Shown here: positions 7,493-43,437 of the stretch, piece after piece | Numbering within the stretch: position 1 is the stretch's first letter | Layout of the letters: each line of letters opens with the position of its first letter | Source of the DNA: Acidobacteriota bacterium | Lineage (GTDB): Bacteria > Acidobacteriota > Polarisedimenticolia > Gp22-AA2 | Direction: 5' to 3' | Assembly: GCA_003223135.1 (NCBI GenBank) | Contig: QHXX01000032.1 | Span: 21,031 to 85,030 of the forward strand | Length of the DNA stretch: 64,000 nucleotides | Program-made: the position numbers and the translations under genes | The notes under the pieces: generated by a model | Seen by the model: the letters and a program-made list of their open reading frames with translations, nothing else | The model's database searches: none | Told to the model about the DNA's origin: nothing

Positions 7493-7545
7493 GACGACCT
7501 TCCGTGCCCGTCCGTGATGAGACGGTGTTCACCTCGTGGCGCCCG

Positions 7546-7584
7546 AAGAATAGAGAAAGCCGCTTCATGAGACCGAAGCGGCTT
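7546..7584 (-). terminator. putative rho-independent terminator for the small minus-strand gene (also downstream of the EAL gene)
   Basis: Perfect 10-bp stem AAGCCGCTTC/GAAGCGGCTT with an 8-nt loop. On the minus strand it is followed by the U-rich ttctctattctt. Confidence 0.45.
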
Positions 7585-7659
7585 GGAACGATCGTGAGCT
7601 GCGGAGCGTTCGGTGCGAATCTCAGCCCTCATGGACTGGTCGGAGAAAGGCGACGTGCT

Positions 7660-7872: not shown

Positions 7873-7906
7873 CCCGAACGTCCTCCCGAAGGTTGTCACT
7901 CCAGTG

Positions 7907-7922
7907 AGCAATTTCCTTGCCA
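7907..7922 (-). promoter_or_regulatory. sigma54 (RpoN) -24/-12 promoter TGGCAAG-N4-TTGCT
   Basis: Minus-strand sequence tggcaaggaaattgct ends 35 nt upstream of the ATG at 7872. It matches the consensus TGGCACG-N4-TTGCW at 11 of 12 core positions, with GG and GC correctly spaced. Confidence 0.55.
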
Positions 7923-8058
7923 GAATTTCGTCGTCCGCAGCGCGATTTCACAATGCACAAGGGGGTCGTAACTAATTGAAAGAACAGCAGCTTGGGTAGG
8001 CAACGATCGATGCCGCATCGTGTTGCCTCTCCGCTCAACAGCGAAATCGGTTTTGATC

Positions 8059-8107
8059 TGTCACTCTGGCGTGCTTCTACATTGACAGAAATACGTCAAA
8101 GTGACAG
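8059..8107. promoter_or_regulatory. cluster of TGTCA/TGACA dyads (candidate enhancer/UAS for the adjacent sigma54 activator)
   Basis: The sequence is tgtcactctggcgtgcttctacattgacagaaatacgtcaaagtgacaga. It contains the palindrome TTGAC-N8-GTCAA and inverted TGTCAC...GTGACA. It lies about 140-200 bp upstream of the sigma54 promoter on the same strand sense, and a related tgtcactcc motif occurs at about 7882. Confidence 0.35.
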
Positions 8108-8134
8108 ACTTCGGAGGCTCATCGAGAGGTGACG

Positions 8135-17501: not shown

Positions 17502-19277
17502 CTAGGCGATCGAAGCGGTCGGGTGCCCGGGAACACCGATCCGACCCGGGCGTGCCAGGCGTCGCGCCTGGAATCGTGCCACCGGGTCGTGCGGGTCGAG
17601 GGCGTGGGCGCGGTCAAAAGAGGCCGCAGCCTCCGCGCGGCGCCGCAACCGCAAAAGCGCGGTCCCGAGGAGCGTGTGCGCCAGGTGGAATGCGGGAACG
17701 TCCTCCGCGGCCGCGCGGTAGTGCTCGGCCGCCTCCGCGAAGCGCCTCCGGCGCATCGCCAGCGCCCCCAGACGCAGGCGCGCCCAGAGAGAGCGTGGGT
17801 TATCGCGCAGGATCGCCAAGTACTCCTGGCGCGCCCGGCCGAAAGCGCCACGGCGCTGCCAGTACTCGCCCGACGACAGACGAAGGGCGTAGCAGTCGCC
17901 CACCACGGCGCGCTGCCGCGCAAAGTCCTCCGGGCCATAGACCGAGAGGCGGCCGGTCCGACGCAGCGCGGCCGCGAGCCTCCGGATCGATCGCCGTGTC
18001 CAGGGGTCGTCCCGGACATAGTACGCCTCGCGGTGATCGCTCACCCAGTAGTCGTCGCCCAGCCCGAAGCGGATCTTCGCCTCCTCGTACAGCGCCGTGC
18101 CCGGGTAGACGGTCATCGGCGAGACCAGCCCGTCGTGCGGCCGGATCGCCTCGATCAGACCGATGGTTGCGGCGAGGTCCTCGTCGGTCTCCGAGTCAAT
18201 CCCGGTGATCAGGTAAATTGACAGACCAAGCCCGACTCTGCGGGTGGCGGCGGCCGCGGTGCGGATCTGCTCGATCGTGATCCCCTTGTTGAGTCGCTGC
18301 AGCATGCGTGGCGAGCCCGATTCGACACCATATTGGATGTGCGTGCAGCCGGCCCGCCGCATCCAGGCCAGGCGCTCCTCGTCCACGGCGTTCACCCGCG
18401 ACTGACAGTCCCACAGGAGATCGATCTTCCGATCGATCAACATCCGACAGAAGTCGATGACGCGCTTCTTGTTGACCGTGAATGTGTCGTCCCGCACCGA
18501 CACGTACACGACACCGTGCCTGTCACGCAGCAGACGCACCTCTTCGATCATGTTCTCGGCCGAGCGGAACCGCAGGGCGCGCCCCCAGAACTCGGGGGAG
18601 GAACAGAAAGTGCAGGCGGCCGGGCAGCCGCGCGACGTGATGATGAACTCGAACTGCGTCACCGGGTCGACACCGACGGCCGCCGGGTCGGCGGCCGGGT
18701 GAGGAAGCCGATCGAGGTCCACGATCACCGGCCGATCGGGCGTGTCGACGAAGACGATCCCCCGGTCCACCGTTGAGGGTGGATGGGAAGAAGACGGCGG
18801 TGCCGCGTGAGCCCCTGCCGACGCTCGGAAAGTGATCCCCGCGATCCGCGCCAGCGACCGTGGAGGGTCTCCGCGGCCGAGCGCCCGCACCAGGTCGAGC
18901 ATCGTCTCCTCCCCCTCGCCGCGCACGACGACGTCGATCTGGGGGTAGTGTGACAGGAGAGGGTGCGGCAGGTGCGTGGCGTGCGGGCCGCCGGCCGCGA
19001 TGAAGCACGAGGGGTTGGCGTCGCGCGCCAGCGCCGCCAGGCGCATCGCCTCGTGCCGATTGAAGGTAAACACCGACACACCGAGGATGTCCGGACGCTC
19101 CTTCTGGAAGAAGCGCGCGGTGTCCTTCCACGACCATGCGCTGCAGTTCACGATGCGCGAGTCGTACCCTTCGCGCCGCAAGAGCGCGTTGATGGACCCG
19201 AGTCCGAGCGGCGTAAAGCGGGAGTAGAACTCCATTTTCCCGAGGTCGTGGCAGGTATAGGCCAGAAGGATTTTCAC
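17502..19277 (-). CDS. B12-binding domain radical SAM protein with C-terminal TPR-like region
   Basis: N-terminal cobalamin-binding domain, then the radical SAM core (CPAACTFCSS) and an Ala/Arg-rich TPR-like tail. 591 aa. Confidence 0.8.
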   Translation of the reverse strand: MKILLAYTCHDLGKMEFYSRFTPLGLGSINALLRREGYDSRIVNCSAWSWKDTARFFQKERPDILGVSVFTFNRHEAMRLAALARDANPSCFIAAGGPHATHLPHPLLSHYPQIDVVVRGEGEETMLDLVRALGRGDPPRSLARIAGITFRASAGAHAAPPSSSHPPSTVDRGIVFVDTPDRPVIVDLDRLPHPAADPAAVGVDPVTQFEFIITSRGCPAACTFCSSPEFWGRALRFRSAENMIEEVRLLRDRHGVVYVSVRDDTFTVNKKRVIDFCRMLIDRKIDLLWDCQSRVNAVDEERLAWMRRAGCTHIQYGVESGSPRMLQRLNKGITIEQIRTAAAATRRVGLGLSIYLITGIDSETDEDLAATIGLIEAIRPHDGLVSPMTVYPGTALYEEAKIRFGLGDDYWVSDHREAYYVRDDPWTRRSIRRLAAALRRTGRLSVYGPEDFARQRAVVGDCYALRLSSGEYWQRRGAFGRARQEYLAILRDNPRSLWARLRLGALAMRRRRFAEAAEHYRAAAEDVPAFHLAHTLLGTALLRLRRRAEAAASFDRAHALDPHDPVARFQARRLARPGRIGVPGHPTASIA

Positions 19278-20182
19278 GCGGTTCTCCGCGCCCGGGTGAC
19301 GGCCGGGAAACCCATCAGTCGCTGCACTTCACGCGCCAGAACGGGCAGGCGCTCGTCCCGCAGCAGCGGGAACATCGTGCGCGCCCGGCGCAGGGCGGAG
19401 CGCTCCAGGTCACACACGACGAGGCTTTCTTCGAGGATCGGCCCCTCGGCGAGCGCCTCGCCGAACGGGTCGAAAACGCAGGATCCGCCTGCGAAGTTCA
19501 CCCCGTCCTCGAAGCCCACACGGTTGACGTACACGATGAACATGGTCTGCATCTGCGCGGTCACTTTGACCAGGTCTCTCCAGGTCGCCTGGCCGATCAG
19601 TCCCCGCCGCCGATCGACCCCCTCGGTCGGGCCGGCCGATATCACAAGCAGGTAGTCGGCGCCGTCCTGGGCGAGGATCAGGGCGGTCGACGGGTGCCAG
19701 AAATCCTCGCAGACGAGCAGTCCCATCCGGCCGAAGGGCGTGGGGAATGCTTCCAGGCGATCCCCGGCGGCGAAGAAACGTCCTTCGTCGAACATCCCGT
19801 AAGTCGGCAGGTAGACCTTGCGGTGCACATGGCAAGCCCGCCCCCCGGAAAGGAACACGGCGCTGTTGTGATAACGGTGCCCCTGCGTCTCCTCGACCAG
19901 GCCGACCACCATCGGGATCCGCCGACTCATGTCGAGAAGCGCTCTGATCCGCCCGGGCTCGTGGAGCGGGACCGCGACGTCCGCCACCAAGTCTTGAAGG
20001 GAATATCCGGTCAAGCTCAGCTCCGGGAAGATGAGCAGCTGGGCGCCCCTCCCAACGGCTCTGCGAGCCCAGACCAGGTGTCGGGCGACGTTCGCCTCGA
20101 AGTCCCCGAGGACGGGCTCCATCTGCGCCAGGGCGATCCGCAGTGGCGTGGGCCTTCGATGCAACGCGCGCCGCCGCGCCAT
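19274..20182 (-). CDS. carbon-nitrogen hydrolase (nitrilase superfamily)
   Basis: Start MARRRALHRRPTPLRIALAQM, with LLIFPELSLTGY (catalytic Glu), RKVYLP (Lys) and LLVCEDFWHP (Cys). It overlaps the downstream radical SAM start by 4 nt. Confidence 0.75.
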   Translation of the reverse strand: MARRRALHRRPTPLRIALAQMEPVLGDFEANVARHLVWARRAVGRGAQLLIFPELSLTGYSLQDLVADVAVPLHEPGRIRALLDMSRRIPMVVGLVEETQGHRYHNSAVFLSGGRACHVHRKVYLPTYGMFDEGRFFAAGDRLEAFPTPFGRMGLLVCEDFWHPSTALILAQDGADYLLVISAGPTEGVDRRRGLIGQATWRDLVKVTAQMQTMFIVYVNRVGFEDGVNFAGGSCVFDPFGEALAEGPILEESLVVCDLERSALRRARTMFPLLRDERLPVLAREVQRLMGFPAVTRARRTA

Positions 20183-20334: not shown

Positions 20335-21144
20335 ATGATCCGTAAAGCCGCCGTGGCCGGTCAGTTCTACTCGGCCAACCCGGAGACGCTCCGGAACGAT
20401 CTGGTCGCGCTGACGCAGGGAATGTCCCCTCCGGCGGAACCGCGCGGCCTTGCGTTGATGGTGCCGCACGCCGGCTACAAGTATTCGGGAAGAGTGGCGG
20501 GGGAGACGTATACCGCCGCGCGCCTTGCGAAGCGTGCCGTCATCCTCTGCCCGAACCATACGGGCCTGGGAGAGGCCATCGCGGTCAACGATGAGGGCCA
20601 TTGGGAGACGCCGCTCGGCCGGATCCCGATCGACGCCTCCCTGGCGCGCGCCGTCCTTGCCGGCTGCCGGGAGGCGCGAGTCGACTGGGCGGCGCACAGC
20701 CGCGAGCACTCCCTGGAAGTGCAGCTGCCCTTTCTGCAGCACCTCCTGGGCGACCCGACCATCGTGCCGATCTGCGTCGGGACACTGAATCTTCGAGCGC
20801 TCCTCGACCTGGGGCGGGCGGTCTCTTCGGCCGTCGAGCAGGATGGGGGAGACGTCCTGCTGATCATCAGCAGCGATATGTCGCACTACGTCCCGGCGAC
20901 GGTCGCCAGAAAGCAGGACCATAAGGCGATCGAGCGCGTCGTGGCGCTCGATCCAGAAGGGCTCCACCGGATCGTCCTCGAGGAGGAGATCAGCATGTGC
21001 GGGATGGCACCCGCGGTCGCGGGTCTGGAAGCCGCCCGGAGGCTCGGGGCCGGACAAGCGCGGCTCGTCGCCTACGGCCACTCCGGTGAGACGACGGGGG
21101 ATTCGCGCTCTGTCGTCGGGTACGCCGGCGTCGTCGTCACCTGA
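20335..21144 (+). CDS. MEMO1-family protein (AmmeMemoRadiSam system protein B-like)
   Basis: AGQFY, VPHAGYKYSG, CPNHTG, LEVQLPFLQ and SSDMSHY motifs. Confidence 0.8.
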   Translation: MIRKAAVAGQFYSANPETLRNDLVALTQGMSPPAEPRGLALMVPHAGYKYSGRVAGETYTAARLAKRAVILCPNHTGLGEAIAVNDEGHWETPLGRIPIDASLARAVLAGCREARVDWAAHSREHSLEVQLPFLQHLLGDPTIVPICVGTLNLRALLDLGRAVSSAVEQDGGDVLLIISSDMSHYVPATVARKQDHKAIERVVALDPEGLHRIVLEEEISMCGMAPAVAGLEAARRLGAGQARLVAYGHSGETTGDSRSVVGYAGVVVT

Positions 21145-21150
21145 CCGCGC

Positions 21151-22782
21151 ATGCGTGCCGCCCCGAAGGCCGGTCTCGGGCTGCTCCTCCTGGCCGCCCT
21201 CTGCGGGAGCGCCGCGGCGAAGCAGGAGCCGGCCGCGACGCCCACCCCCCAGCCCGCTGAGCGCCAGCGCATGCTCGTCGGCAAAGGTCCGGGCGGTAAG
21301 ACCGTGGAGATCGCGGTCGGCCCGGGTTCGATCTTCGGCAAGGACGAATTCATCCTCAAGGAATACGTCGACATCAAGTACGGCGACACCCGTCTGCAGG
21401 CGGACTACGTCCGCTACGTTCCGTCCACCAAGGACGTGACCGCGCTGGGAAACGTCATCCTCGATCAAGGAACGTCGCGCATGACCGCCGACAAGATCAC
21501 GTACAACCTGGACAGCGAGACCGGAACCTTCTACTCGGCCCGGGGCTACACCGAGCCGTCGTACTACTTCGAAGCGGAGACTGTCGAGAAGATTTCCAAG
21601 GACGAAATGGTCCTGCACAATGCGACATTCACCGCGTGCACGCAGCCGGTGCCTTACTGGAGCTTCAAGATCAGCAGCGCCCTCATCCGGCAGGACAACT
21701 ATGCCTACCTGCACAATCCGCGTTTCAAGATCGGGCACGCCATCGTCTTCTACTCCCCGTATCTTGTCTGGCCGGTGAAATCCGACCGGGCCTCCGGCCT
21801 GCTGTTTCCCGAATTCGGCTTCTCGCAACGCAGCGGCACCATCATCAGCAACGCCCTCTACTGGGCGATTCGCCGGAACATGGACGCCACGTTCTATCTT
21901 GATTACATGTCGCTCGCCGGGTACGGCACCGGGCTGGAGTATCGCTACGTGCCGAGCGAAAGCGGTCGAGGCTACTTCACCGGTTATTTCATCCGCGACC
22001 AGATCGCGAAGCAAGCGGAGGAATCCGGTGTCCCCACCGATCGCTGGGTCATCAACTACGGGCACAACCAGACCTTCGCTCCGGGCTGGAAGCTGGTCGC
22101 GACCGCGAACTTCATCAGCGATTTCGACTATTACCGCGACTTCGAACGAGATTTGAGGCTCTCGACGAACCCGCAGGCGGTCAGCGACCTGTTCGTGACC
22201 CGGACCTGGGGGTTCTACTCTTTGAACCTCCGGGGACAGCGCCGCGAGCAGCTGGTCAACGTGACCATCCCGCCCACCCTGAACGGTCCCTTCTTCCAGA
22301 CCGAGGAGGAGTCGATCACCCGGTGGATGAGGCCGGAGATCGAGCTCCGCGGCCGACGACAGCGGCTGGGCACCTTGCCCCTGTTCCTGACGCTCGAGTC
22401 CTCCGCCGATCTTTTCACCAAGGGCACACCGGGAGCGGAGTACGGTCGCTTCGACCTGTTCCCGGTGTTCTCCTCGCAGCTGTCTCCCGTGCCCTGGGTG
22501 GACGTGAACGCCAGCTTCGGTTTCCGCGACACCTATTACACGAAGAGCCAGCGTAGCGATCTGGGCTGCGACAACCGCCCGGGCACGGGCGGCTTCGGCG
22601 AGGGGAACGGGATCGTGGACGCGGAGCACGACGAAAACCAGAACGGCATCTTCGACGCCGCGGATGACCTCGGCTGTGACAATCTGCCGGGCACGGGGGA
22701 TTACGGGGAGGGAAACGGCGTCCTGGACAGCGAGACGACGTTGATGAGATCGACTTCGTCAGCGGCAACAGCAACAGCGTAA
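21151..22782 (+). CDS. lptD: LPS-assembly protein LptD, N-terminal/central part (gene frameshifted near 22735)
   Basis: Signal peptide and OstA-like N-terminal domain. It ends after two tandem Ca-binding-like motifs, DLGCDN[RL]PGTG..GEGNG[IV][VL]D. Confidence 0.75.
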   Translation: MRAAPKAGLGLLLLAALCGSAAAKQEPAATPTPQPAERQRMLVGKGPGGKTVEIAVGPGSIFGKDEFILKEYVDIKYGDTRLQADYVRYVPSTKDVTALGNVILDQGTSRMTADKITYNLDSETGTFYSARGYTEPSYYFEAETVEKISKDEMVLHNATFTACTQPVPYWSFKISSALIRQDNYAYLHNPRFKIGHAIVFYSPYLVWPVKSDRASGLLFPEFGFSQRSGTIISNALYWAIRRNMDATFYLDYMSLAGYGTGLEYRYVPSESGRGYFTGYFIRDQIAKQAEESGVPTDRWVINYGHNQTFAPGWKLVATANFISDFDYYRDFERDLRLSTNPQAVSDLFVTRTWGFYSLNLRGQRREQLVNVTIPPTLNGPFFQTEEESITRWMRPEIELRGRRQRLGTLPLFLTLESSADLFTKGTPGAEYGRFDLFPVFSSQLSPVPWVDVNASFGFRDTYYTKSQRSDLGCDNRPGTGGFGEGNGIVDAEHDENQNGIFDAADDLGCDNLPGTGDYGEGNGVLDSETTLMRSTSSAATATA

Positions 22783-22802
22783 CCTACGCCCTGGTCACCC
22801 GG

Positions 22803-23642
22803 TTGTTCGCCAAGAGACCGGTAGGGGGGGCCGAGCAGATGGGCCAGCTGTTCGGGCCCCAGAACTCGACCTTCGTGGGCGGTGGACGATTCGATCCGTA
22901 CGCCAAGAGCCGCGAGGCCCTGCAGCGCCTGCAGAAGGAACAACAGGCGGGCGGAGCGTCCCAGGAGTCCAAGGAGAAGGAGGAAGAGAAGAAGCGCCTC
23001 AGCACGGTCGAGATCGCCACGCTCGAGATCAGCCAGGATTACTCGTTCCTGGGGCCGCTGAGCCTGTCAACGGGACTGGGATTCCCCGACCCGCCAGTCG
23101 AGAGCCACTTCGGACCGGTGCGCACGACGCTGCGCATCAATCCCTCGATCCACACCAGCGTCGACGTGCGAAGCGACTATGATATTCTGTTCCGCCAGAT
23201 CCGGGAGGCGAGCCTGAGCGCCAACCTGCGCAACGCGCGGCGCGGGTTTCTCGACGTCACTTGGTCCATGGTCCGCGACCTCGAGGGGCGCGCCCTTCTG
23301 GAGAAGGGAATCGGTTTCAGCCAGCCGTTCGACCAGAACCAGATCGGCCTGCAGGGAGAGACCAGCTTCTGGGGCCGCAAGTTCCTGGTCGGCATGCAGA
23401 CGAATTACGAGCTGGGGTCCATCCTGCCGGGCGAGCCGCGTCTCCGGGACCAGCGGTACCGCTTCGGGTACAACACGCAGTGCTGCGGCTTCCAGCTCGA
23501 AGTCCTCAATCGCAACTTCGTCGGCTCCAGTCAGCGCGAATTCCGCTTCCTGATCAATCTCAAGGGTGTGGGAAACGTGATCGATTTCCAGTCGGGATCC
23601 GTCGGGGCGCTGCCCGGGACCTTCCCGGGGATCGTGCCGTGA
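22803..23642 (+). CDS. lptD: LptD C-terminal part (frame open from 22680, continues the previous ORF after a frameshift)
   Basis: The upstream in-frame extension reads ...DDVDEIDFVSGNSNSVTYALVTRLFAKRPV..., and the ORF then reads YRFGYNTQCCGFQLEVLNRNF (LptD C-terminal barrel). Combined length of about 820 aa is typical for LptD. Confidence 0.7.
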   Translation: MFAKRPVGGAEQMGQLFGPQNSTFVGGGRFDPYAKSREALQRLQKEQQAGGASQESKEKEEEKKRLSTVEIATLEISQDYSFLGPLSLSTGLGFPDPPVESHFGPVRTTLRINPSIHTSVDVRSDYDILFRQIREASLSANLRNARRGFLDVTWSMVRDLEGRALLEKGIGFSQPFDQNQIGLQGETSFWGRKFLVGMQTNYELGSILPGEPRLRDQRYRFGYNTQCCGFQLEVLNRNFVGSSQREFRFLINLKGVGNVIDFQSGSVGALPGTFPGIVP

Positions 23643-24520
23643 GCGGCTCACCGTCCAGGGTCGCCCTCGTTCTGGGGGCCGGCGGCATGCTGGGGCGGGC
23701 CGTCACGGAGACACTGGAACGGGCGTTCCCGGGAACGGTTTCGGCCACACGCTGGGAGGTTGACGTGACCGATCGTTTCCGACTGGATGCGGAAGTCGAA
23801 AGGTTGCGGCCCGATCTGGTCGTCAACTGCGCCGCGTACACCGATGTCGATGGGTGCGAGATCGACAGGGATCGGGCTCGTCGGGTGAACGCCGAGGGTG
23901 CGGAAAACGCGGCACGGGCCGCCGCCGCGGCCGGATGCCCCATCGTTCACGTCAGCACCGACTTCGTCTTCGATGGCCGCAAGGGGGCTCCCTACTCGGA
24001 GGACGATCCGCCCTCCCCGCTGTCGGAATACGGCCGCAGCAAGTACGACGGGGAGCGACGCGTCGCGGCGGCGACGCCGGAGCATCTGATCGTGCGGACG
24101 TCGTGGCTGTACGGACCGGGGCGCGGCAACTTCGTGGACTCAATCCGCGCGCGCGCCCGCAATGGCGGGACACTGCGGGTCGTGGACGATCAGTTCGGAT
24201 CGCCGACCTACGTCGCCGACCTGGCACGGGCGCTGCACCATCTCGTGCTCAGGAACGCCAGGGGCCTGGTGCATTTCGCCAATGCGGGCGCGTGCTCGCG
24301 CTACGCCCTGGCGCAGGCAGTCCTTTCGGTCTCCGGCATGAGCCACGTCAGGCTCGAGCCGATCCGGACCGACGAGGCCGGCCGGATCGCCATCCGCCCT
24401 GCGTACGCCGCCCTCGACACGTCGCGTTATGCGAGCCTCATCGGCGAGGGGCCACGCCCCTGGGAGGAGGCCCTGCGCGACTATCTCGACGCGGACCGGT
24501 CGCGAGCCGGGGGCGGATGA
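23639..24520 (+). CDS. rfbD: dTDP-4-dehydrorhamnose reductase RmlD
   Basis: GTG start overlapping the lptD stop. VALVLGAGGMLG Rossmann motif, YGRSK catalytic motif and an RmlD-like C-terminus. Confidence 0.8.
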   Translation: MSGSPSRVALVLGAGGMLGRAVTETLERAFPGTVSATRWEVDVTDRFRLDAEVERLRPDLVVNCAAYTDVDGCEIDRDRARRVNAEGAENAARAAAAAGCPIVHVSTDFVFDGRKGAPYSEDDPPSPLSEYGRSKYDGERRVAAATPEHLIVRTSWLYGPGRGNFVDSIRARARNGGTLRVVDDQFGSPTYVADLARALHHLVLRNARGLVHFANAGACSRYALAQAVLSVSGMSHVRLEPIRTDEAGRIAIRPAYAALDTSRYASLIGEGPRPWEEALRDYLDADRSRAGGG

Positions 24521-25518
24521 AGGTTCTGGTCACCGGAGCCACCGGGTATCTCGGTGGCCACGTCGCGGCCCGCCTCGCCTCGGCAGGGCATCGCGTCCTC
24601 GCCTTGGCGCGGCCCGGACGCGAGGCGAGCGTTCCGGCCGGCTGCCGCCCGGTTGTCGGTGACGTCCTTGATCCCGCCTCACTGGACCGGGCCCTCGACG
24701 GGTGCGACGCGCTCGTCCACATGGCGGCGCTGGTCAAGATGTGGGTCAAGGACCGGCGCGAGTTCCACCGCGTGAACGTCGAGGGGCTCGGCGCCGCCCT
24801 GCGGGCGGCGGAGCGCTGTGGTGTGCGGCGCATTCTCTACACCTCCACCATCGGCGCGCTCGGTCCGACCGGCCCGGAGCCCCGCGACGAGACGAGCGAG
24901 CGGACCGAGTTCCGTTTTTGCACCGATTACGAGCGCTCGAAGTGGGTCGCCGAGCTGATGGCGCGCGAGCGGGCGGCGAACGGCCTCCCGGTCATCACGG
25001 TCTACCCGGGCGTGGTCTATGGCATCGGGGCGATGACGCAGGGCAATCTTCTCGACCGGGTCTTCCGCGACTACCTGGCGGGCCGACTGAAGGTTCGACT
25101 CGGGAGCGCGCCGAGCCGGATCTGTTACGCCTGGGCGGACGATGTGGCCGAAGGACACCGTCTTGCGCTCGATAAGGGGGAGGCGGGGAGGGGCTATATC
25201 CTGGGCGGAGAGAATGTCAGCCAGGACGAGCTGTTTGGCCTGCTACACGAGCTGACCGGCCTGCGGCCGCCGCGCGTCGCGGTTCCATTCTGGGCCGCGA
25301 CGACCGCCGGCAAGGCGATGCGCTCCTGGGCGCGGCTGACGGGCCGGCCTCCCGCATTTACGGACGGGGCGATCGCAACCTTCCGGTTTCACTGGGCCTA
25401 TTCGAGCGGCCGGGCCATCCGCGAGCTCGGGTATCGGGTCACGCCCCTCCGCGAGGGGCTTCGCCTGACGCTCGCGGCGCTACGATTGCAGGAGGCTGCC
25501 CGGGCCGGGGCGGGGTGA
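24517..25518 (+). CDS. NAD-dependent epimerase/dehydratase (SDR family, HpnA/dihydroflavonol-reductase-like)
   Basis: ATG overlaps the rmlD stop (ATGA). MKVLVTGATGYLGGHV and the YERSK catalytic motif. Confidence 0.75.
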   Translation: MKVLVTGATGYLGGHVAARLASAGHRVLALARPGREASVPAGCRPVVGDVLDPASLDRALDGCDALVHMAALVKMWVKDRREFHRVNVEGLGAALRAAERCGVRRILYTSTIGALGPTGPEPRDETSERTEFRFCTDYERSKWVAELMARERAANGLPVITVYPGVVYGIGAMTQGNLLDRVFRDYLAGRLKVRLGSAPSRICYAWADDVAEGHRLALDKGEAGRGYILGGENVSQDELFGLLHELTGLRPPRVAVPFWAATTAGKAMRSWARLTGRPPAFTDGAIATFRFHWAYSSGRAIRELGYRVTPLREGLRLTLAALRLQEAARAGAG

Positions 25519-25525
25519 GGGGCGG

Positions 25526-26845
25526 GTGCCGACAAACGGGGAGGCGGCGCGCAGGGCGGTGCACTTCGCAATGGGAGGGTTGGCCTTCGTGCTTCCCTGC
25601 CTGACGCCACGGCTGGCCGCCTGCGCCGCAGGGAGCGCTGTCGTCTTCAACCTGCTCCTCCTGCCGCGCCTCGCCCCCTCATTGTTCAGGCGCGGCGAGA
25701 TCGACGCTCCCTGGCGCTCGGGGATCGTCATCTACCCAGTGGCGGTTCTCCTGCTCGTCCTCCTCTTCCACCGTCGCATGGAGATCGCCGGCGCGGCGTG
25801 GGCGATCATGGCCGCAGGGGACAGCGCCGCCGGGTGGGTCGGCCGGCGCTGCGGCCGGCGCCCGATTCCCTGGAACCGCTCCAAGACGATGGAGGGGTCG
25901 GCGGCGTTCGCCATCGCGGCCTTCGCCTTCTCCTGGGCCGTCCTTGTCTGGATGGGCCGCGGCTCGCTGGAGGCGGCCCTCCTGTCGGGGTCGGCGTCGT
26001 TGTTCGCGGCCTTCATGGAGTCGCTGCCTTGGCGGCTCGACGACAACCTCACAGTGCCGCTCCTCGGGGCGACCTTCCTGGCCGGTCTGACGCAGTTCGA
26101 TCTCGATCGATTCCGGGCGGGTGCGCCGGGGTTCGGGCGAGGGCTCCTACTGGGGGCGGCGGTCAATCTCGTCCTGGCCGTCCTGTTTCATCGAAGCGGG
26201 ACGGTCGATCGGTCTGGGATGATCGCGGGGTTCGTTGTCGGCGTTCTGACGTTCACCTTCGCCGGCTGGCGTGGGTTCCTGGTTCTCATCTCCTTCTTCA
26301 TCCTCGGGAGCACATCGACACGCCTGGGGCTGCGCCGCAAGGAGCGGCTCGGTATCGCGCAGGAGATGAAGGGCGCGCGATCGGCGCGGCACGCGCTGGC
26401 CAACTGTGGTGTCGCCGTGTACCTGGCGTTCCTCGCGGCCACCGCCACAACACCGGAAATCTTTTCCCTGGCGTTTGTGTGCGCCTACGCCACCGCCGCC
26501 TTCGACACCGTGAGCAGCGAAATCGGTCGGGCGTACGGTGGCCGGCCCGTCCTGATCACGACCTTCCGGCCGGTACCGGCGGGCACCAACGGCGCGGTCT
26601 CCTGGCTCGGAACGTTCGCAGGGATGGCGGCTGCGGCTGTCGTATGCGCCGTGGCGATCGCCGACGGGTACCTGGGGCCTCGCTGGTTGGTCGTCGTGCT
26701 CGTCGCGGCGTTCGTCGGTTCGACCGCCGATTCCGTGCTGGGCGCGACGCTCGAGACCCGGGGCCTCATCGACAACGAGGCAGTGAACTTCTCCAACACC
26801 CTCGTCGGCGCGCTCTCGGGAATCGGTCTCGCCGCCTTAATCTAG
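25526..26845 (+). CDS. fusion of a CTP-dependent prenol (phytol/dolichol) kinase-like domain and a DUF92/COG1836 (VTE6-type) integral membrane domain
   Basis: The N-terminal about 200 aa are multi-TM, COG0170-like. The C-terminal about 240 aa carry DUF92 hallmarks, for example TRGLIDNEAVNFSNTLVGA. Confidence 0.6.
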   Translation: MPTNGEAARRAVHFAMGGLAFVLPCLTPRLAACAAGSAVVFNLLLLPRLAPSLFRRGEIDAPWRSGIVIYPVAVLLLVLLFHRRMEIAGAAWAIMAAGDSAAGWVGRRCGRRPIPWNRSKTMEGSAAFAIAAFAFSWAVLVWMGRGSLEAALLSGSASLFAAFMESLPWRLDDNLTVPLLGATFLAGLTQFDLDRFRAGAPGFGRGLLLGAAVNLVLAVLFHRSGTVDRSGMIAGFVVGVLTFTFAGWRGFLVLISFFILGSTSTRLGLRRKERLGIAQEMKGARSARHALANCGVAVYLAFLAATATTPEIFSLAFVCAYATAAFDTVSSEIGRAYGGRPVLITTFRPVPAGTNGAVSWLGTFAGMAAAAVVCAVAIADGYLGPRWLVVVLVAAFVGSTADSVLGATLETRGLIDNEAVNFSNTLVGALSGIGLAALI

Positions 26846-26990
26846 AACCCTCCCCGGCGCTCACGAGGCCCACCGCTCGACCATGTCGACCAGGCCGTTG
26901 ATGGCGGGATCGCGGGAGGGCAGCCCGACGACGTACTGCCTGCCGGGAACATCCAGGACGAGCCTCTCTCCGGATCCCTTCCCGGACCAG

Positions 26991-27440
26991 TCATCGGGGC
27001 GTGCCGAGGCGATGGCGGCGCAAGACGTCGATTTCGGCGGCGGCCAGCCTGCGCCTGAGCGTTCGGCCGCGCGCGCTCCGCGTCCAGATCTCTCCGTCGC
27101 TCTCGACGATGATCTGCGAGCCGTCCCTGTGCGCCGCCATCGGCGTCGTGAACGAGGGCAGGGGAGCGCGCTTCGAAGGCTTCATGGCCTGCCCGCGGAC
27201 CAGGTCGCCGTTCGCCTTGGGAACCGTACCGAGGTATCCCAGCCTGCGCATGGATTCCATCATCGGCGCGGCAGGCGCCCCGGACCGGACACCGAGCGCC
27301 GTCTGGGCCGCGGCGCTGCCGAAGACCCCTTCGTAAGTCACGCCCTCGGGCAATTCGACCGGGACGCGCATGGGCGTGGACTGGCCCGTGGCGTTCGAGA
27401 CCTCGGTGTCCACGGCCACGAACGATGTGCAGGCCGTCAT
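26991..27440 (-). CDS. hypothetical protein (supported mainly by codon-position GC bias)
   Basis: 149-aa minus-strand ORF with third-position GC of about 85% in the sampled stretch, against about 70% for the overlapping plus-strand ORF. It lies divergent to the ECF sigma gene. Confidence 0.35.
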   Translation of the reverse strand: MTACTSFVAVDTEVSNATGQSTPMRVPVELPEGVTYEGVFGSAAAQTALGVRSGAPAAPMMESMRRLGYLGTVPKANGDLVRGQAMKPSKRAPLPSFTTPMAAHRDGSQIIVESDGEIWTRSARGRTLRRRLAAAEIDVLRRHRLGTPR

Positions 27441-27565
27441 CAGACGGTAGCGCAGCCCCAGCTCGGCCTGGAACGTTCCTTCACGCCGGTAGGACAGGGA
27501 TGGGGCGGGCGGAGTTCCGCGAGGAGCATTTTTGGGTCACCCGGGCCGCGGGCGCGCGCGACCTG

Positions 27566-27594
27566 GGAACTTGGGCGTGCCGGAGGATGTCTCA
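27566..27594 (+). promoter_or_regulatory. putative ECF-type autoregulatory promoter GGAACTT-N16-GTCTCA
   Basis: The motif matches the RpoE-like consensus (GGAACTT ... TCTNA) and ends about 20 nt upstream of the ATG at 27614. Confidence 0.4.
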
Positions 27595-27613
27595 TGTCGG
27601 GAAAGGCGAATCG

Positions 27614-28306
27614 ATGAGCACAATCGTGCGGCCGCGTGGCATGCTGTCGCGGATGACCTGGGGCACGAGGGCCAAGCCCGGTGAGACGGGGGATCAACGG
27701 GCTCCCGCGCCGGGAAGCGAAACGGAAGAAATGCCTCTGGTGGAGCGGGCGCGGCGGGGGGACCGCGAAGCGTTCGATCTCCTCGTCGAGCGCCACCTGC
27801 AACACGTCTGGGCGGTCGTCTGGCGGATCCTGCGCCACCATGAGGACACCGAGGACGTCGTGCAGGAGGTCTTCCTGGCGGCGTTTCAGGCCCTGCCGCG
27901 CTACAGAGGCGAGTCACGACTCTCGACATGGCTCCATCGGATCGCCGTGACGCGGGCCCTCAACCACCTCGATCGAAAAGAGGAAAAAATGCGACGCGCG
28001 CTCAGGAGTGTCGAGGACGTGACCGACCGCCTGGAAACAAGCGCAGACGGTCCTTCGGCGTGGGTCCTGCGCGAAACTCCTTCCCCCCTCCAGGCCCTGG
28101 AAGCGGACGAGCTCGTTCGTCGGCTGGCCTCCTGCCTGTCGCGACTTCCGGCCGCCTGGAGGCTCGTCCTGACATTGCGTGACGTGGACGCCCGCTCCTA
28201 CGAAGAGATCGCCGGGCTCGCCGGCCTGGCCCTGGGGACGGTACGCTCTCGACTGTCGCGGGCACGCCTGGCGCTGCGGCAGTGCGTCGCCGGAGATGCC
28301 CCATGA
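27614..28306 (+). CDS. ECF (sigma-70 family, group 4) RNA polymerase sigma factor
   Basis: LVERARRGDREAFDLLVERH begins region 2, and a region 4 HTH is present. The start is chosen downstream of the predicted promoter; ATG 27731 is an alternative. Confidence 0.8.
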   Translation: MSTIVRPRGMLSRMTWGTRAKPGETGDQRAPAPGSETEEMPLVERARRGDREAFDLLVERHLQHVWAVVWRILRHHEDTEDVVQEVFLAAFQALPRYRGESRLSTWLHRIAVTRALNHLDRKEEKMRRALRSVEDVTDRLETSADGPSAWVLRETPSPLQALEADELVRRLASCLSRLPAAWRLVLTLRDVDARSYEEIAGLAGLALGTVRSRLSRARLALRQCVAGDAP

Positions 28307-29475
28307 GCTTCCGGCAGGACGACCATCCGCACGACCTGCTCTCCCCCTACCTGGACGGTGAGCTGGAGGAGAAGGCGCGGGCTGCGATCGAAGCGCACCT
28401 TGCGGGATGCTCCTCCTGCCGGGTGCTCGTGGAGGATTTCCGATCCATGGCCGCGTCCGAGGCGGCGGAGGCGCCGCCTCCCATACCCGCCGATCTCCGT
28501 GGCCGGATTCGCCTGGCCCTCGATCCGAAGCGAGCCTCGGGCGGCGCGGTCCTCGGGGGGTGGATTTGGTCCTACCGCCTCGGACTCGCCGCGGCGGCCG
28601 GCGTCGTGATGGTGATTGGGCTGTGGGCTCTGCGGCAGGAGCCGTCCCCGCCGGTCGGCACCGCGGTGCCCGCGCCGGTCGTTCCAGACACCGCGGGAGA
28701 CCTTGAACGTCCCGGCGCCGGAGCCGGAGTCGCGCCGCCGCCCGTGGCCCCGGCGAGGCCGGAGGAGAAGGAGACAATGAAACGATTCAAATCGCTCGGG
28801 TACACCGGTGCTGAGTCACCGAAGAAGAGCGAGCCTGTTTCGCCTCCCCCTTCGGCGCATCAGAGACTCTCGGACGGAGCGCTTCCCACGCGGGAGGCGC
28901 CGGCGCCCCCGGCCGCCTCTCAGGGGTGGGAGGGGAAGACGACTCCGCCGGCTCAGGCCGTCCCGAAATCCGGGTCCGGTGGATCGCACGAGGAGGCCCC
29001 GATGGGTGAGCCCGAAATTGCGCGCATGCAGGCCGCAAGGACGGCCGCCGGCGCACCGCCCTCCGAGTACGGGGCGCCCTCGGGCCGAAGTCTCGTGGTC
29101 GAATTCCCGGCCTACCGGGTCTTGGTCTTCGAGGACGGCACGATCGCCCTGTCGGCAAAGGGGTACTCCTGCGCTGCGCGGCGGGACGGATCGTCCGTCG
29201 ACCCCGACCTCGCGGCGCTCTTCACCCTGGCTTCCTCCTCCGGCGAGGGAGGGTCGGGGAACAAAGGCCCTGCACCGGCCGGCGGGCCGGTCGTCCGGCT
29301 GGTCGAGCCGCCGGCCGGCGCCGAGAGGGCATCGGGCGCGATCGCGGGGGTGGTGGTGCAGGCCGCGAAGTCGATCGAGATTGAGAGGCGCCTGAGGGTC
29401 CTGCTGCAGGACAGATACCTGGCGCTCATCGAGGTGCGCTGCGGGCCGGCGCCCCGGGCGGTCCGCAGTCCCTAG
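28303..29475 (+). CDS. zinc-finger (ZAS-type) anti-sigma factor, membrane-spanning with Pro/Ala-rich periplasmic region
   Basis: ATGA overlap with the sigma gene. HLAGCSSCRVLVEDF is an HxxxCxxC motif. One TM helix (LGLAAAAGVVMVIGLWAL). Confidence 0.65.
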   Translation: MSFRQDDHPHDLLSPYLDGELEEKARAAIEAHLAGCSSCRVLVEDFRSMAASEAAEAPPPIPADLRGRIRLALDPKRASGGAVLGGWIWSYRLGLAAAAGVVMVIGLWALRQEPSPPVGTAVPAPVVPDTAGDLERPGAGAGVAPPPVAPARPEEKETMKRFKSLGYTGAESPKKSEPVSPPPSAHQRLSDGALPTREAPAPPAASQGWEGKTTPPAQAVPKSGSGGSHEEAPMGEPEIARMQAARTAAGAPPSEYGAPSGRSLVVEFPAYRVLVFEDGTIALSAKGYSCAARRDGSSVDPDLAALFTLASSSGEGGSGNKGPAPAGGPVVRLVEPPAGAERASGAIAGVVVQAAKSIEIERRLRVLLQDRYLALIEVRCGPAPRAVRSP

Positions 29476-29482
29476 GAGCCCG

Positions 29483-29507
29483 CCCGCCGAGGTCGGCGGG
29501 TTCGTTG
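29483..29507 (+). terminator. putative terminator hairpin after the anti-sigma gene
   Basis: Stem CCCGCCG/CGGCGGG with a 4-nt loop, followed by ttcgttg (weak U-tract). Confidence 0.4.
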
Positions 29508-29557
29508 AGGTCGCGATTTGTGCGGCCGCGGGCCGGCGAGTATCCTACGCTTCGCGC

Positions 29558-30577
29558 ATGGGTGGGATCGCGGTCAGCACGGTCAGAAGCTTCGCCTCGC
29601 GGGCACGGCTCTACTTCGCCTTCACCCGTCCGTTCACCCTCCTGCCGCCAACGTTCGGCGTCGTCTCAGGTGCGCTCACCGCGTTCGGGTCGGCGCACAA
29701 CCCCGATCCGGCCCGGCGCTTCTCGGCCTCTGTGCTGATGATGATCGCCCTCGGATCGATGACGGCCGCCCTCCTGAATGCGGCGAGCAACGTGATCAAT
29801 CAGTACCACGACCTCGAGATCGATCGCCGCAACAAGCCCCAGAGGCCGCTGGCGTCCGGCGCAATCTCCACGGTGGCGGGAGTGCGGTTCGCGGCCCTGC
29901 TCTACGTGCTGGCGCTCGTGCCGACGTGGCTGGTCGTCGTTTACCCGAGCACGACATTATGGGAGAAGGCGACGGCGCCCCCCGGTGATCACCAGTGTTT
30001 TTTCATCTATCTCGCCGGATTGATCTTCACCCTGGTCTATTCCGATCCCGCCTGGGGGCGGAGCAAGCGCTACGGCATCTGGGCGAATCTCACGATCGCC
30101 GTCCCGCGCGGCTGCCTCCTGAAGGTGGCGGGCTGGTCCACGGTCGGGAGCGTCCTGCTCCTGGAACCCTGGTACATCGGGTCGATCTTCCTGCTGTTCC
30201 TTCTAGGGGCGACCTCCAGCAAGGACTTCTCCGACATGGAGGGAGACATGGCCCACGGCTGTCTGACGCTGCCGATCCGACTGGGCGTCGAGAGGGCGGC
30301 GCGCTTTATCGCGCCGTTCTTCTGTCTGCCGTGGCTCCTCATTCCGCTCGGCGCGTGGCTCCCCGATCCGTTCGGGGCGGGCCCGGTCCTGACGGGGGAC
30401 CGCACGTTGCTCACTCTGCTCGGTCTGGCGCTGTTCGGCTGGGGAGCCTGGACCGCGCGACTCATCCTGCGCGACCCGGCGGCACTGGCCCGGTCGGAGA
30501 ACCATCCATCATGGACGCACATGTATCTGATGATGATGTTCGCCCAGATCGGCTTCGCGATCGCCTACCTTGCTTGA
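29558..30577 (+). CDS. UbiA-family prenyltransferase (DGGGP-synthase/chlorophyll-synthase-like subgroup)
   Basis: NVINQYHDLEIDRRN (NxxxDxxxD) and KDFSDMEGD second Asp-rich motif. 8-9 TM helices. Confidence 0.75.
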   Translation: MGGIAVSTVRSFASRARLYFAFTRPFTLLPPTFGVVSGALTAFGSAHNPDPARRFSASVLMMIALGSMTAALLNAASNVINQYHDLEIDRRNKPQRPLASGAISTVAGVRFAALLYVLALVPTWLVVVYPSTTLWEKATAPPGDHQCFFIYLAGLIFTLVYSDPAWGRSKRYGIWANLTIAVPRGCLLKVAGWSTVGSVLLLEPWYIGSIFLLFLLGATSSKDFSDMEGDMAHGCLTLPIRLGVERAARFIAPFFCLPWLLIPLGAWLPDPFGAGPVLTGDRTLLTLLGLALFGWGAWTARLILRDPAALARSENHPSWTHMYLMMMFAQIGFAIAYLA

Positions 30578-31731
30578 GCGATCCCTCTCTTGGTTGTTGG
30601 CGGCAGGTTCCCTGGCCGTCGCGCTCCTGGTCGCGCCCGGTACGGCGGGAGGCTCAACACCGGCGCACCGTGGAGGGGCCGACACGGTCGTCGTCATTTC
30701 GATCGACGGCGTGCGCTGGGACTACCCGGCCAGGGCTGGAGCTCCGGCCCTCGCGCGCATGTCGTCGGAGGGCGCCTCCTGCGGCGCCCTCAGTGCGAAC
30801 CGCGGTGTATCACTGGGTCTTCTCGTACACGCCGTGGCACGGCCTCGCGGCCACGATCCGGATGCCATTCTCCAGGGAGACGACGGATCGGGAGAAGGTC
30901 GATCGGATCGTCGAATGGCTGTCTCTGCGGGATGCTCAGCGACCGCGCCTCATCCTGTCGTATCTACACGGGCCCGACTCCGCTGGACACCTCGAGGGGC
31001 CGGAGGCGCCGGCGGTCATGGAGCGGGTCCGCCAGACCGACCAACTGGTGGAACGCCTGTTACGGGCCCTCGAGGGCGTGCCCAGGTCGGCCCTGGTGGT
31101 CGTATCCGATCACGGCATGACCCCGGTGTCGCGGGTCCTGCGGACCGCGGAATTTCTACGCGATGGCGCGGCGCGGCGGGCGCGCGCCGTCTCCTCGGGA
31201 GCCGTCTCCAACATTTACTGTCCCGACGCCCCCTCATGTGACGGCGCCGAGTCAGCACTCCGGAGAACGACGGGGGTGAGCGTCTTCCGGCAAGAAGCCC
31301 TCCCGGATGATTTGAGATACCGGCAGCCCTCACGCACCGGAGATCTCGTGGCCATCGCTCCCGCGGGAGCCTACTTCGCCGACGGTCCGAACGGTATAAG
31401 GCCGGCCCGGGGCATGCACGGTTATCGCCCGGAGGAAAAATCGATGCAGGGAATCTTCCGTGCCTGGGGGGCGGGCGTGAGGAGGGGATCGCGGAGCGAC
31501 AGCATCCGGGCCGTGGACGTCGCGCCTTTCGTCTGCCGGCTTCTCGGCATCGAGTGTCCGCCGGGAATCGACGGCCGCGCGCCGGAGGAACTCCTCGCAG
31601 GCGCGGACAGCGGGCCTGCTTCGGAGCGGGGCCCTACTCCTTCCGGGTCTCCGGTCCGGAGGCCGCCGCCGCGCGCGGATCGGCCCGTTCAGGGACCCCG
31701 GACTCCTGACTATCCTCCGGGCGGTCCGTAG
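30570..31731 (+). CDS. type I phosphodiesterase/nucleotide pyrophosphatase (NPP/alkaline phosphatase superfamily), frameshifted near 30780
   Basis: Frame 1 gives a signal peptide plus VVVISIDGVRWDY. The gene continues in another frame as PSVRTAVYHW...YTPWHGLAA...LSYLHGPDSAGHLEGPEAP...VVVSDHGM...GMHGY. The start overlaps the UbiA stop by 8 nt. Confidence 0.65.
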
Positions 31732-33794: not shown

Positions 33795-33904
33795 GCACAC
33801 TTCCTTACGTGTCGGTGCGCCGCGCGGCTATCGGACAAGGGAAGCGCTCAACGCGTCCGCCGCCCGGCCGGGTCGAGCGATCGTTCTTTATTAATGCGCG
33901 AGCT

Positions 33905-33933
33905 AGTATAAACATTGAGTGTATTATTGTCAA
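33905..33933 (-). promoter_or_regulatory. consensus-like sigma70 promoter TTGACA-N17-TATACT for hsp20, within an AT-rich island
   Basis: Minus strand reads ttgacaataatacactcaatgtttatact. The leader to the ATG is about 100 nt. The surrounding 33885-33990 region has much lower GC than the genome. Confidence 0.5.
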
Positions 33934-34042
33934 GTACACAGTATCTCTATACAAGTTATTTCGTTACAGCGGCTTATTGGATTGACTTCGGTCGGATGGA
34001 CTCTCTGATGCAACGCAACGTGGTGGACTGGAGCGCCGGCGG

Positions 34043-34906
34043 TCAATCGGCGTTTGGTTCAGGCTGGCTGACTCGGACAGGAGATTGTGTCCCCTGTTCC
34101 TGGGTTCCTTCGTTCAGGAACTCCCTGAACAAGTCCAGGCACAGGCGAGTGTGCGTCAGGAAAAGGTGATGGCCAGTCCCGCGCACCGTTCGGAGGCGCA
34201 TGTGCGCGTAAAGCTCCGGGATGGGGCGCACGTGGTCGAGCGGCGCCACGGAGTCCTGCTCCCCATGGATGAGGAGTGTCGGAACGGGAGGAACTGACGG
34301 CAGAATCCGGTCGACCTGGTAATTCAGGAGGCAGTGCTCCAGGGTCGAGGTCAGCGACTTGAAGGTGAATTTGTGGCTATCAACCAGGACCGTCCAGGGA
34401 AAACGCAACAGATAACGCAGGGTGATCTCCAGGCCGCTGCGCTTCAACTGGGACATCGTCTCTCCGAGCGAATGCTCATTGAGGAGCCGGCGGTAGTGTG
34501 GCGAGCCTCGCCAGAACAGCGCGTGCGCGGTCGCCGGGTCGCTGAAGCGCGGCAGGCTCAGGAGGATCATCCGCCGCACGTGCGACCCGTAACGGGCGGC
34601 GTACTCCAGGGCGATGAGGCCGCCGAGAGAGTGGCCGACGATCGTCAGAGGACGGGCGACAAGATCAAACTCCTCCACGAAACCCCTCACGCTGTCGCGA
34701 AACACTTCGATGGTGTACTCCAGGTGAGGTTTTGGGGACAGGCCGAAGCCGAGCAGATCGGGAATGATGATGCGATGATCGGATTCGAGCGGGCGGACCT
34801 TCTTTTGCCAGTAACGCCTGGAGCCCGTGATGCCGTGGAGGAATAGCAGGATAGGTCCGCGGGGATTGCCGGTCTCGACGTAATGGAGGGCGTTCGGCGG
34901 TCTCAT
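34043..34906 (-). CDS. alpha/beta hydrolase
   Basis: GHSLGG nucleophile elbow and an HGxxD-like C-terminal catalytic region. Confidence 0.7.
   Translation of the reverse strand: MRPPNALHYVETGNPRGPILLFLHGITGSRRYWQKKVRPLESDHRIIIPDLLGFGLSPKPHLEYTIEVFRDSVRGFVEEFDLVARPLTIVGHSLGGLIALEYAARYGSHVRRMILLSLPRFSDPATAHALFWRGSPHYRRLLNEHSLGETMSQLKRSGLEITLRYLLRFPWTVLVDSHKFTFKSLTSTLEHCLLNYQVDRILPSVPPVPTLLIHGEQDSVAPLDHVRPIPELYAHMRLRTVRGTGHHLFLTHTRLCLDLFREFLNEGTQEQGTQSPVRVSQPEPNAD

Positions 34907-41914: not shown

Positions 41915-43437
<1,523 letters not shown>

Follow-up and report, generated by a model that had tools for sequence, protein, structure and literature searches.

Among the closest described parallels to the locus reported here is the phytol salvage of plants and cyanobacteria, in which VTE5 and VTE6 feed homogentisate phytyltransferase (HPT, VTE2), MenA and chlorophyll synthase, i.e. 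an alcohol is converted to its diphosphate, which then serves prenyl transfer. The family of VTE6, COG1836/DUF92, has been tied to phytol-phosphate metabolism and to this plant phytyl-phosphate kinase (PMC3223725, PMC9782597), and only in a few organisms have the kinases for polyprenol and polyprenyl phosphate, which belong to a "missing" route of prenol salvage, been identified (PMC9782597). In archaea, fusions of a Sec59-like domain with COG1836 were described by Makarova et al. (2015), with an HHpred match of 99.85% to COG0170; the same study assigned COG1836 to the cytidylyltransferase superfamily (PMC5898192). On the side of prenyl transfer, bacterial genes similar to digeranylgeranylglyceryl phosphate synthase (DGGGPS) but without a known role are widespread (PMC6431249). 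The DNA analysed in this work is a 64,000-nt stretch (the window) of contig QHXX01000032.1 from an Acidobacteriota bacterium of the class Polarisedimenticolia; the names under which its nearest proteins are listed in databases likewise indicate Acidobacteriota, Candidatus Polarisedimenticolia. It contains a gene (the fusion), which joins a candidate polyprenol kinase domain to a DUF92 domain, and, further downstream on the same strand, a gene for a prenyltransferase of the UbiA family. The parts are of known kinds. What is new is the conserved pairing, in non-phototrophic Acidobacteriota, of a candidate two-step prenol kinase in fused form with an orphan UbiA protein that resembles DGGGPS and the chlorophyll synthase ChlG, accompanied by a short-chain dehydrogenase/reductase (SDR). 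Our literature searches turned up no description of a fusion-UbiA operon in bacteria. Our tentative reading is that Acidobacteriota of the Polarisedimenticolia type have, where a compact operon of envelope genes ends, a module for prenol activation and prenyl transfer, made up of the fusion and UbiA and perhaps the SDR; we put its probability at roughly 0.45.

The first-pass annotation of the window, made from the sequence alone, had linked the fusion to UbiA by position only. To this we can now add the gene order in related loci, which were gathered from GTDB genomes and from metagenomes (about 30 loci at class level; the genome scan was run with a class-level alignment and returned mostly Polarisedimenticolia). 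UbiA comes after the fusion in every Polarisedimenticolia-type locus that is long enough (about 30 loci), and in 20 of the class-level loci the two genes adjoin directly. UbiA was also found downstream of the fusion in three deeper lineages (L045/L052/L053, L048 and L054/L055), in which the fusion is 40-47% identical. The spacing between the two genes ranges from a 4-nt overlap (L004/L005) to gaps of 1 nt (L054) and 12 nt (L045/L052). The genes on the 3' side of UbiA change: they can encode an NPP-type phosphodiesterase, DoxX and NDH2, 3HCDH and arginase or a HEAT protein, or GrpE follows directly, but the fusion-UbiA pair stays. A reciprocal look-up, which started from P0240, the most distant among the UbiA proteins listed (66% identity), led back to the order Memo-LptD-RmlD-SDR-fusion-UbiA-NPP, with overlaps or 1-nt gaps between the genes. 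Thus the synteny was borne out in the class and beyond it, and the notion that the fusion and UbiA belong together is partly supported.

The SDR, which went unmentioned in the first-pass annotation, is the most widely kept neighbour of the fusion. It lies directly 5' of the fusion in most Polarisedimenticolia loci as well as in L028, L045/52/53, L046/47, L048, L050, L051 and L054/55, often overlapping the start of the fusion, in DNA whose GC content ranges from 0.47 to 0.74. In the window its own start overlaps the stop of RmlD by 4 nt. The protein resembles HpnA (TIGR03466, 219 bits, below the cut-off of 367), and its best match among proteins of known structure is 3wj7, a 'putative oxidoreductase' (E 3.5e-44).

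The two Asp-rich motifs of the UbiA protein read N81QYHDLEID and D223FSDMEGD, in agreement with the NxxxDxxxD and second Asp-rich motif noticed at first, and the proposed likeness to DGGGPS and chlorophyll synthase was also confirmed. The best NCBIfam models were PRK12884 (DGGGPS-like, E 4e-27), ChlG (2.5e-25), DGGGPS (1.2e-20) and HPT (1.5e-19), and the scores were in all four cases below the equivalog cut-offs (95, 89, 74 and 70.5 bits vs. 269, 313, 296 and 226, respectively). Among solved structures the closest relative is the DGGGPS of M. jannaschii (6m31, E 1.2e-14), followed by chlorophyll synthase (9sau, 1.8e-9); both Asp-rich motifs align with those of the M. jannaschii enzyme, which is one of the closest known systems together with the DGGGPS-like UbiA proteins of FCB-group bacteria. 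Unlike a true DGGGPS, the protein scores far below the equivalog cut-offs and close to its ChlG and HPT scores, and no geranylgeranylglyceryl phosphate synthase (GGGPS) partner was found nearby. By these comparisons it is a separate subfamily on the DGGGPS/chlorophyll-synthase/HPT branch. The first-pass annotation had named a menaquinone- or heme O-type UbiA as the finding that would speak against it. Identity as MenA or heme O synthase was rejected: the matches to MenA (1.7e-7), heme O synthase (1.4e-6) and 4-HB polyprenyltransferase (3.4e-5) were about 20 orders of magnitude weaker than those to the DGGGPS/ChlG-type models. DGGGP synthase, chlorophyll synthase and homogentisate phytyltransferase all take C20 diphosphate donors, thus the proximity of UbiA to these enzymes fits a supply route of the VTE5/VTE6 kind. 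UbiA identity in all relatives is 64-99%, and no other gene of the set is as well conserved: identity is 64-66% for UbiA where the fusion has 45-47%. It may be mentioned that L052, from the lineage with 47% identity, has a second, different UbiA gene (300 aa) together with a DUF116 gene (6689-8528, minus strand), convergent to its SDR-fusion-UbiA-HEAT operon.

The two halves of the fusion differ in how readily they can be assigned. The DUF92/COG1836 domain proposed at first for this gene is clearly there: PF01940 matches amino acids 213-429 with an E-value of 4.3e-56 (190 bits vs. a gathering score of 27.5), along positions 2-251 of the 251-position profile, and TIGR00297 reaches 183.5 bits, just below its cut-off of 205.85. 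The C-terminal half can thus be classified by its sequence as a member of the DUF92/COG1836/VTE6 family, and it would be expected to have prenyl-phosphate kinase activity. The N-terminal domain (N-domain) shares the fold of the CTP-dependent CdsA/CarS/polyprenol-kinase superfamily, with the conserved acidic residues present. It contains the motifs AAGD99SAAGWVGRRCGRRPIPWNRSK120TMEGS and E165SLPWRLDD173N174, which we take to be similar to those of Sec59/VTE5. Profile-profile alignment with hhalign related the N-domain to the DUF92 domain (E 7.5e-5) and brought the GD..A/DT..S and ES..DN motifs of the two into register, in agreement with the superfamily placement by Makarova et al. (PMC5898192). 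The profile of the polyprenol kinase family (Sec59/DOLK, VTE5, FOLK; COG0170, within PF01148) does not match the N-domain, and we do not class the domain as a member of that family; it may nevertheless work like one. As no family model recognizes it, our use of "prenol kinase" for the N-domain leans on the fold, weak profile links, the motifs, analogy and the published HHpred result. Taken as a whole, the fusion is probably an enzyme that converts free isoprenoid alcohol to the diphosphate.

The architecture of the fusion is real, widespread and already present in the literature. A protein identical to the fusion (P0001) was found in JGI metagenomes, and a profile search of 1.84 billion representatives returned 7458 relatives of the N-domain; DUF92 is carried by 71 of the 108 best ones that were scanned. 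The archaeal fusions of Sec59-like and arCOG02245 (COG1836) domains, e.g. Mbar_A3310 (PMC5898192), have, as far as they can be compared by description, the same domain order, superfamily and conserved acidic residues. The genomic partners are different, since the archaeal fusions are linked to UppS and not to UbiA, whereas the bacterial family described here is linked to the HpnA-like SDR and, in one lineage, to UbiA. Stand-alone N-domain proteins exist in Patescibacteria and Micrarchaeota, and searches with these provided no bridge to PF01148. In one locus of a Planctomycetota metagenome-assembled genome (L031, 6968-8339) the N-domain and DUF92 are encoded by separate, overlapping genes, which follow genes for a FAD_binding_4 protein and a UDP-glucose dehydrogenase. 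This arrangement represents either the unfused ancestral state or a secondary split.

If UbiA were a DGGGP synthase acting on prenyl- or alkyl-glycerol phosphate and the N-domain a CarS-like cytidylyltransferase that makes a CDP-lipid, the locus would serve the synthesis of archaeal-type ether lipids. The match to M. jannaschii DGGGPS and the wide distribution of DGGGPS-like genes in bacteria favour this explanation, which we nevertheless regard as distinctly unlikely: no DGGGPS equivalog score is above the cut-off, with ChlG and HPT scoring about equally, and the characterised relative of the DUF92 partner, VTE6, is a kinase. Moreover, the N-domain profile had no match among PDB sequences, CarS and CdsA included, and no Pfam match, hence none to a CarS-type model, and neither GGGPS nor glycerol-1-phosphate dehydrogenase was found among the window open reading frames (ORFs) scanned or in any of the neighbourhoods.

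The prenol-activation and prenyl-transfer reading can be put into the form of a reaction sequence. In the fusion, two domains of CTP-transferase fold, remote homologues of each other, would be arranged one after the other. The Sec59/VTE5-like N-domain would phosphorylate a free isoprenoid alcohol with CTP and the VTE6-like DUF92 domain would add the second phosphate. UbiA would consume the resulting allylic prenyl diphosphate, possibly C20, judging from its nearest relatives, and prenylate an acceptor. The SDR encoded upstream may control the redox state of the alcohol (prenal or prenol), or the acceptor may be its substrate. Like in phytol salvage, there is a DUF92 C-terminal domain, an N-domain with the fold of a CTP-dependent superfamily and a UbiA protein close to ChlG and HPT. 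Unlike in phytol salvage, both phosphorylation steps would be carried out by one polypeptide, encoded beside the transferase, the host is apparently a non-phototroph without chlorophyll-derived phytol, and the Pfam model of VTE5/Sec59 misses the N-domain. The pairing of the fusion with UbiA points to an undescribed membrane-lipid pathway in a group of soil and sediment Acidobacteria. A more specific version of the scheme, in which non-phototrophic Acidobacteriota salvage free C20 alcohols (e.g. phytol or geranylgeraniol, set free from decaying chlorophyll or archaeal lipids) and transfer them onto an envelope acceptor, yielding a prenyl lipid (ether or ester) not recognized in bacteria before, with ECF control of the envelope-stress kind in one subclade, is in our estimate unlikely.

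Several observations weigh against the module. In six of the nine more distant lineages (L028, L031, L046/47, L049, L050 and L051) the fusion occurs without UbiA within 6-7 kb. The 15-kb block Memo-LptD-RmlD-SDR-fusion-UbiA...GrpE-HtpX is collinear at every depth sampled, and since the genes upstream of the fusion are packed just as tightly, the adjacency of fusion and UbiA may reflect inherited gene order. The SDR-fusion pair, which is often found at the end of an LptD-rml operon, is a broader association than fusion-UbiA. The evidence for kinase function of the N-domain is mixed as well: the term "prenol-kinase-like" in the first-pass annotation was right about the superfamily fold, but Pfam and NCBIfam searches with the isolated N-domain (aa 1-205) gave no match even at E<=10, PF01148 was reached, weakly, by 3 of the 108 relatives and in another set by 1 of 10, and the best structural match was a cytidylyltransferase, not a kinase. 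No isoprenoid genes, including those for prenyl-diphosphate synthase and GGGPS, were detected among the 30 window ORFs scanned. Finally, we know of no obvious source of free prenol for a non-phototroph.

A different explanation is that the fusion and the SDR supply carrier lipid to the LptD/dTDP-rhamnose operon by phosphorylating a long-chain polyprenol (e.g. undecaprenol), so that carriers in the form of polyprenyl phosphate or diphosphate are regenerated for synthesis of the lipopolysaccharide (LPS) or O-antigen type, with UbiA adjoining by inherited order and drawing on prenyl diphosphate made de novo. The conservation of the SDR-fusion pair in loci with GC contents from 0.47 to 0.74 is what one would expect in this case, the order LptD-RmlA/RmlD-epimerase-SDR-fusion is seen without UbiA in L046/47 and L050, and the Memo-to-fusion genes of the window form an uninterrupted run with 4-8-nt gaps or overlaps. 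In addition, archaeal COG1836 is linked to the cis-prenyltransferase UppS (PMC5898192). Against carrier-lipid supply stands the adjacency of UbiA, which is kept throughout the class-level loci and in three lineages farther away although the downstream neighbours change. Furthermore, recycling of the carrier needs no second kinase step to the diphosphate. The higher conservation of UbiA than of the fusion, mentioned above, is compatible with a linked essential role of UbiA and is no proof of it. On balance we find carrier-lipid supply rather unlikely.

The fusion, located beside the likely consumer of its product, offers a compact system for studying the biochemistry of DUF92 and of the unannotated N-terminal family. 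If the module of prenol activation and prenyl transfer is real, it would assign a function to one of the many orphan DGGGPS-like UbiA proteins of bacteria, and would point to where isoprenoid lipids might come from in a class of Acidobacteriota that is abundant and uncultured. Should the fusion make carrier lipid instead, it would represent a new kinase for carrier lipids, one associated with genes for LPS. Either way, a family of several thousand proteins, for whose N-domain there is no Pfam model, would become annotated.

In the window the fusion and UbiA are not adjacent, they are separated by genes for an extracytoplasmic function (ECF) sigma factor and an anti-sigma factor. The sigma factor consists of regions 2 and 4 only (Sigma70_r2, PF04542, E 2e-17; r4_2, PF08281, E 8.5e-13) and scores 106.5 bits with TIGR02937 (cut-off 42.9). 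It most likely starts with the ATG at 27614, because the resulting length agrees with that of the L001 protein (230 aa) and because of the position of this codon after the promoter motif; the most likely start of the anti-sigma factor is the ATG at 28303, which overlaps the sigma stop (ATGA). The anti-sigma factor has an N-terminal zf-HC2 domain with the HxxxCxxC motif (H32LAGCSSC), one transmembrane helix (aa 87-112) and a Pro/Ala-rich extracytoplasmic part of about 280 aa, and is less conserved among relatives than the sigma factor (34-45% vs. 65-79% identity). The first-pass annotation called it a redox-sensing anti-sigma factor of the ZAS (zinc-binding anti-sigma) type. We found no support for redox sensing: with one transmembrane helix and a large domain outside the cytoplasm, the protein looks more like a sensor of an envelope signal, and, being membrane-spanning, it gives no indication of RsrA-type redox sensing. 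The better comparison is with RpoE/SigW-type ECF factors and their membrane-bound ZAS proteins, which share regions 2 and 4, the HxxxCxxC motif, translational coupling of the two genes and a GGAAC...GTC-type promoter just upstream. Unlike in those systems, the pair described here is inserted within a biosynthetic gene pair, and in one subclade only.

The motif GGAACTT-N16-GTCTCA occurs once in the window (0.01 occurrences expected by chance). GGAAC(T/C)T...TGTC(T/C) is kept about 20 nt 5' of the sigma start in eight loci (L001, L007, L009, L010, L011, L012, L043 and L044), while the spacer and the flanking sequences diverge. This pattern is a good footprint of an autoregulated ECF promoter. 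The possibility of a further ECF promoter, in front of UbiA or at another site, was also considered and rejected, since the sole other GGAACTT...GTC match falls within coding sequence, on the opposite strand. No terminator-like site was found in the 82-nt gap between the anti-sigma gene and UbiA, which makes it plausible that UbiA is co-transcribed with the sigma pair from the ECF promoter. In the subclade of the window the inserted autoregulated pair would thus put UbiA, together with NPP where this is intact, also downstream of an envelope-stress-type promoter. The sigma/anti-sigma genes were found between the fusion and UbiA in six loci of other genomes, in the window and in the strain-level contigs L043 and L044, and were absent elsewhere. 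They constitute a two-gene insertion limited to one subclade; hence the pair and its conserved promoter motif do exist, as the first-pass annotation stated, but placing the prenyltransferase under ECF control does not hold as a general feature.

The 768-nt gap between the fusion and the sigma gene houses an ORF of 149 aa on the minus strand. It has coding-like GC3 and no Pfam match, and its only distant matches are weak and carry the description 'Ca-activated chloride channel family' (vWA-type). The insertion of about 520 nt in which it lies is present in the window, L043 and L044 only and absent from L001, L007 and L011. Judging from these weak matches, the ORF, which runs divergently from the ECF promoter, is probably what remains of a vWA/CLCA-type gene. 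This likely origin and its restriction to one strain were the reasons for rejecting it as a part of the module.

On the other side of UbiA, its stop codon overlaps the TTG start of the NPP gene (30570) by 8 nt, and the N-terminus of NPP looks like a signal peptide. Of the UbiA-NPP operon described at first, the overlap is real but an intact NPP is not found in the window. The 5' part (30570-30791) and the 3' part (30793-31731) of the gene are in different frames. Comparison with L043, a contig from JGI sample 3300026536, which is 99.5% identical to the window over 14 kb, showed that exactly 182 nt are missing from the window after 30791. The missing segment encodes VPPFPSSTFPAHASLATGVYPDRHGI..., the catalytic Thr/metal motif of NPP. 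The loss amounts to 61 codons, PSSTFPAH...HGI among them, and the frame shifts; similarly, tblastn with the L001 NPP showed that residues 74-134 are missing. In the window, therefore, no uninterrupted ORF provides the catalytic Thr motif together with the metal ligands of PF01663. In L043 the ORF is continuous and encodes a typical family member (E 1.8e-40 with the Xanthomonas NPP 2gsn). NPP follows UbiA in eight class-level loci of other genomes, in L043 and in L054/L055, and is absent from 11, so that it occurs in about half of the loci. From its sequence NPP is predicted to be an accessory periplasmic phosphodiesterase.

The occurrence of UbiA, a phosphoesterase and an SDR next to LptD and Rml genes resembles the set Rv3806c, Rv3807c and DprE2. 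By analogy with decaprenyl-phosphoribose synthesis, UbiA would move a phospho-sugar to polyprenyl phosphate made by the fusion, NPP would remove a phosphate and the SDR would epimerise the sugar. The FAD_binding_4 protein and UDP-glucose dehydrogenase encoded 5' of the split N-domain/DUF92 genes in L031 would fit such a pathway. We consider it very improbable, given the very weak match of UbiA to the decaprenyl-phosphate phosphoribosyltransferase model (E 2.8e-4 vs. 4e-27 for the DGGGPS-like model), the lack of a DprE1-like oxidase in the class-level loci and the absence of NPP from about half of the loci.

The deletion in NPP is not the only one of its kind. LptD is split over two frames in the window because exactly 187 nt (about 61 codons) are missing after 22745 in comparison with L043, and this stretch is present in L043 and in all other relatives. 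GroEL (41915-43377, minus strand) is also broken: about 60 codons are missing at 42448-42454, with a frame change after '...TEDLGIKL'. LptD and GroEL are normally essential genes. Three deletions of about 185 nt, two of them in such genes, and the intact LptD and NPP of L043 suggest an assembly or processing artefact of the source sequence rather than biology.

Table 1. Coordinates of the genes and other features of the locus in the window
Feature	Position	Strand	Remark
Memo	20335-21144	+	
LptD	21151-23642	+	
RmlD	about 23639-24520	+	
HpnA-like extended SDR, 333 aa	24517-25518	+	PF01370 E 5.5e-36
Fusion gene, GTG start, 439 aa	25526-26845	+	
Fusion N-terminal domain, aa 1-205, candidate polyprenol kinase	25526-26140	+	fold, motifs
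Fusion C-terminal DUF92/COG1836 domain, aa 213-439	26162-26845	+	PF01940 E 4.3e-56
149-aa ORF	26991-27440	-	within the ~520-nt insertion (about 27019-27540)
ECF-type promoter-like motif GGAACTT-N16-GTCTCA	27566-27594	+	ends 20 nt 5' of the sigma start codon
ECF sigma factor, 230 aa	27614-28306	+	Sigma70_r2, r4_2, TIGR02937
zf-HC2 anti-sigma factor	28303-29475	+	PF13490 E 2.9e-11
UbiA-family prenyltransferase, 339 aa	29558-30577	+	PF01040 E 9.6e-29
NPP-type phosphodiesterase gene, broken in the window	30570-31731	+	PF01663 over two frames

The region had initially been taken for an island, an idea which the comparison with relatives did not bear out. The GC content of the window is about 0.67, and that of the region under study (0.68-0.71) is unremarkable next to the 0.62-0.71 of the rest. 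All relatives have the core genes in collinear order, and only the sigma/anti-sigma pair and the remnant of about 520 nt vary as insertions. A scan of 20 further ORFs of the window yielded no isoprenoid gene. On these grounds a horizontally acquired island was rejected; the whole stretch, enclosed in the Memo-LptD-RmlD...GrpE-HtpX block that is collinear across the class, is a vertically conserved core block.

On the 3' side of NPP lies a convergent heat-shock cluster, GrpE-HtpX-Hsp20. The 3' ends of NPP (plus strand) and GrpE (minus strand) overlap convergently by 98 nt (31634-31731), and the gene calls in L001, L043 and L054 are similar. The gene for ClpB, which in L001 (17944-20571), L002, L004 and L054 is located between Hsp20 and an alpha/beta-hydrolase gene, is absent from the window (33875-34043) and from L043; its loss appears to be real and strain-level. 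At the other end of the block, a gene for a B12-binding radical SAM protein with C-terminal TPR repeats (17505-19328, minus strand) is found upstream of Memo in all class-level loci.

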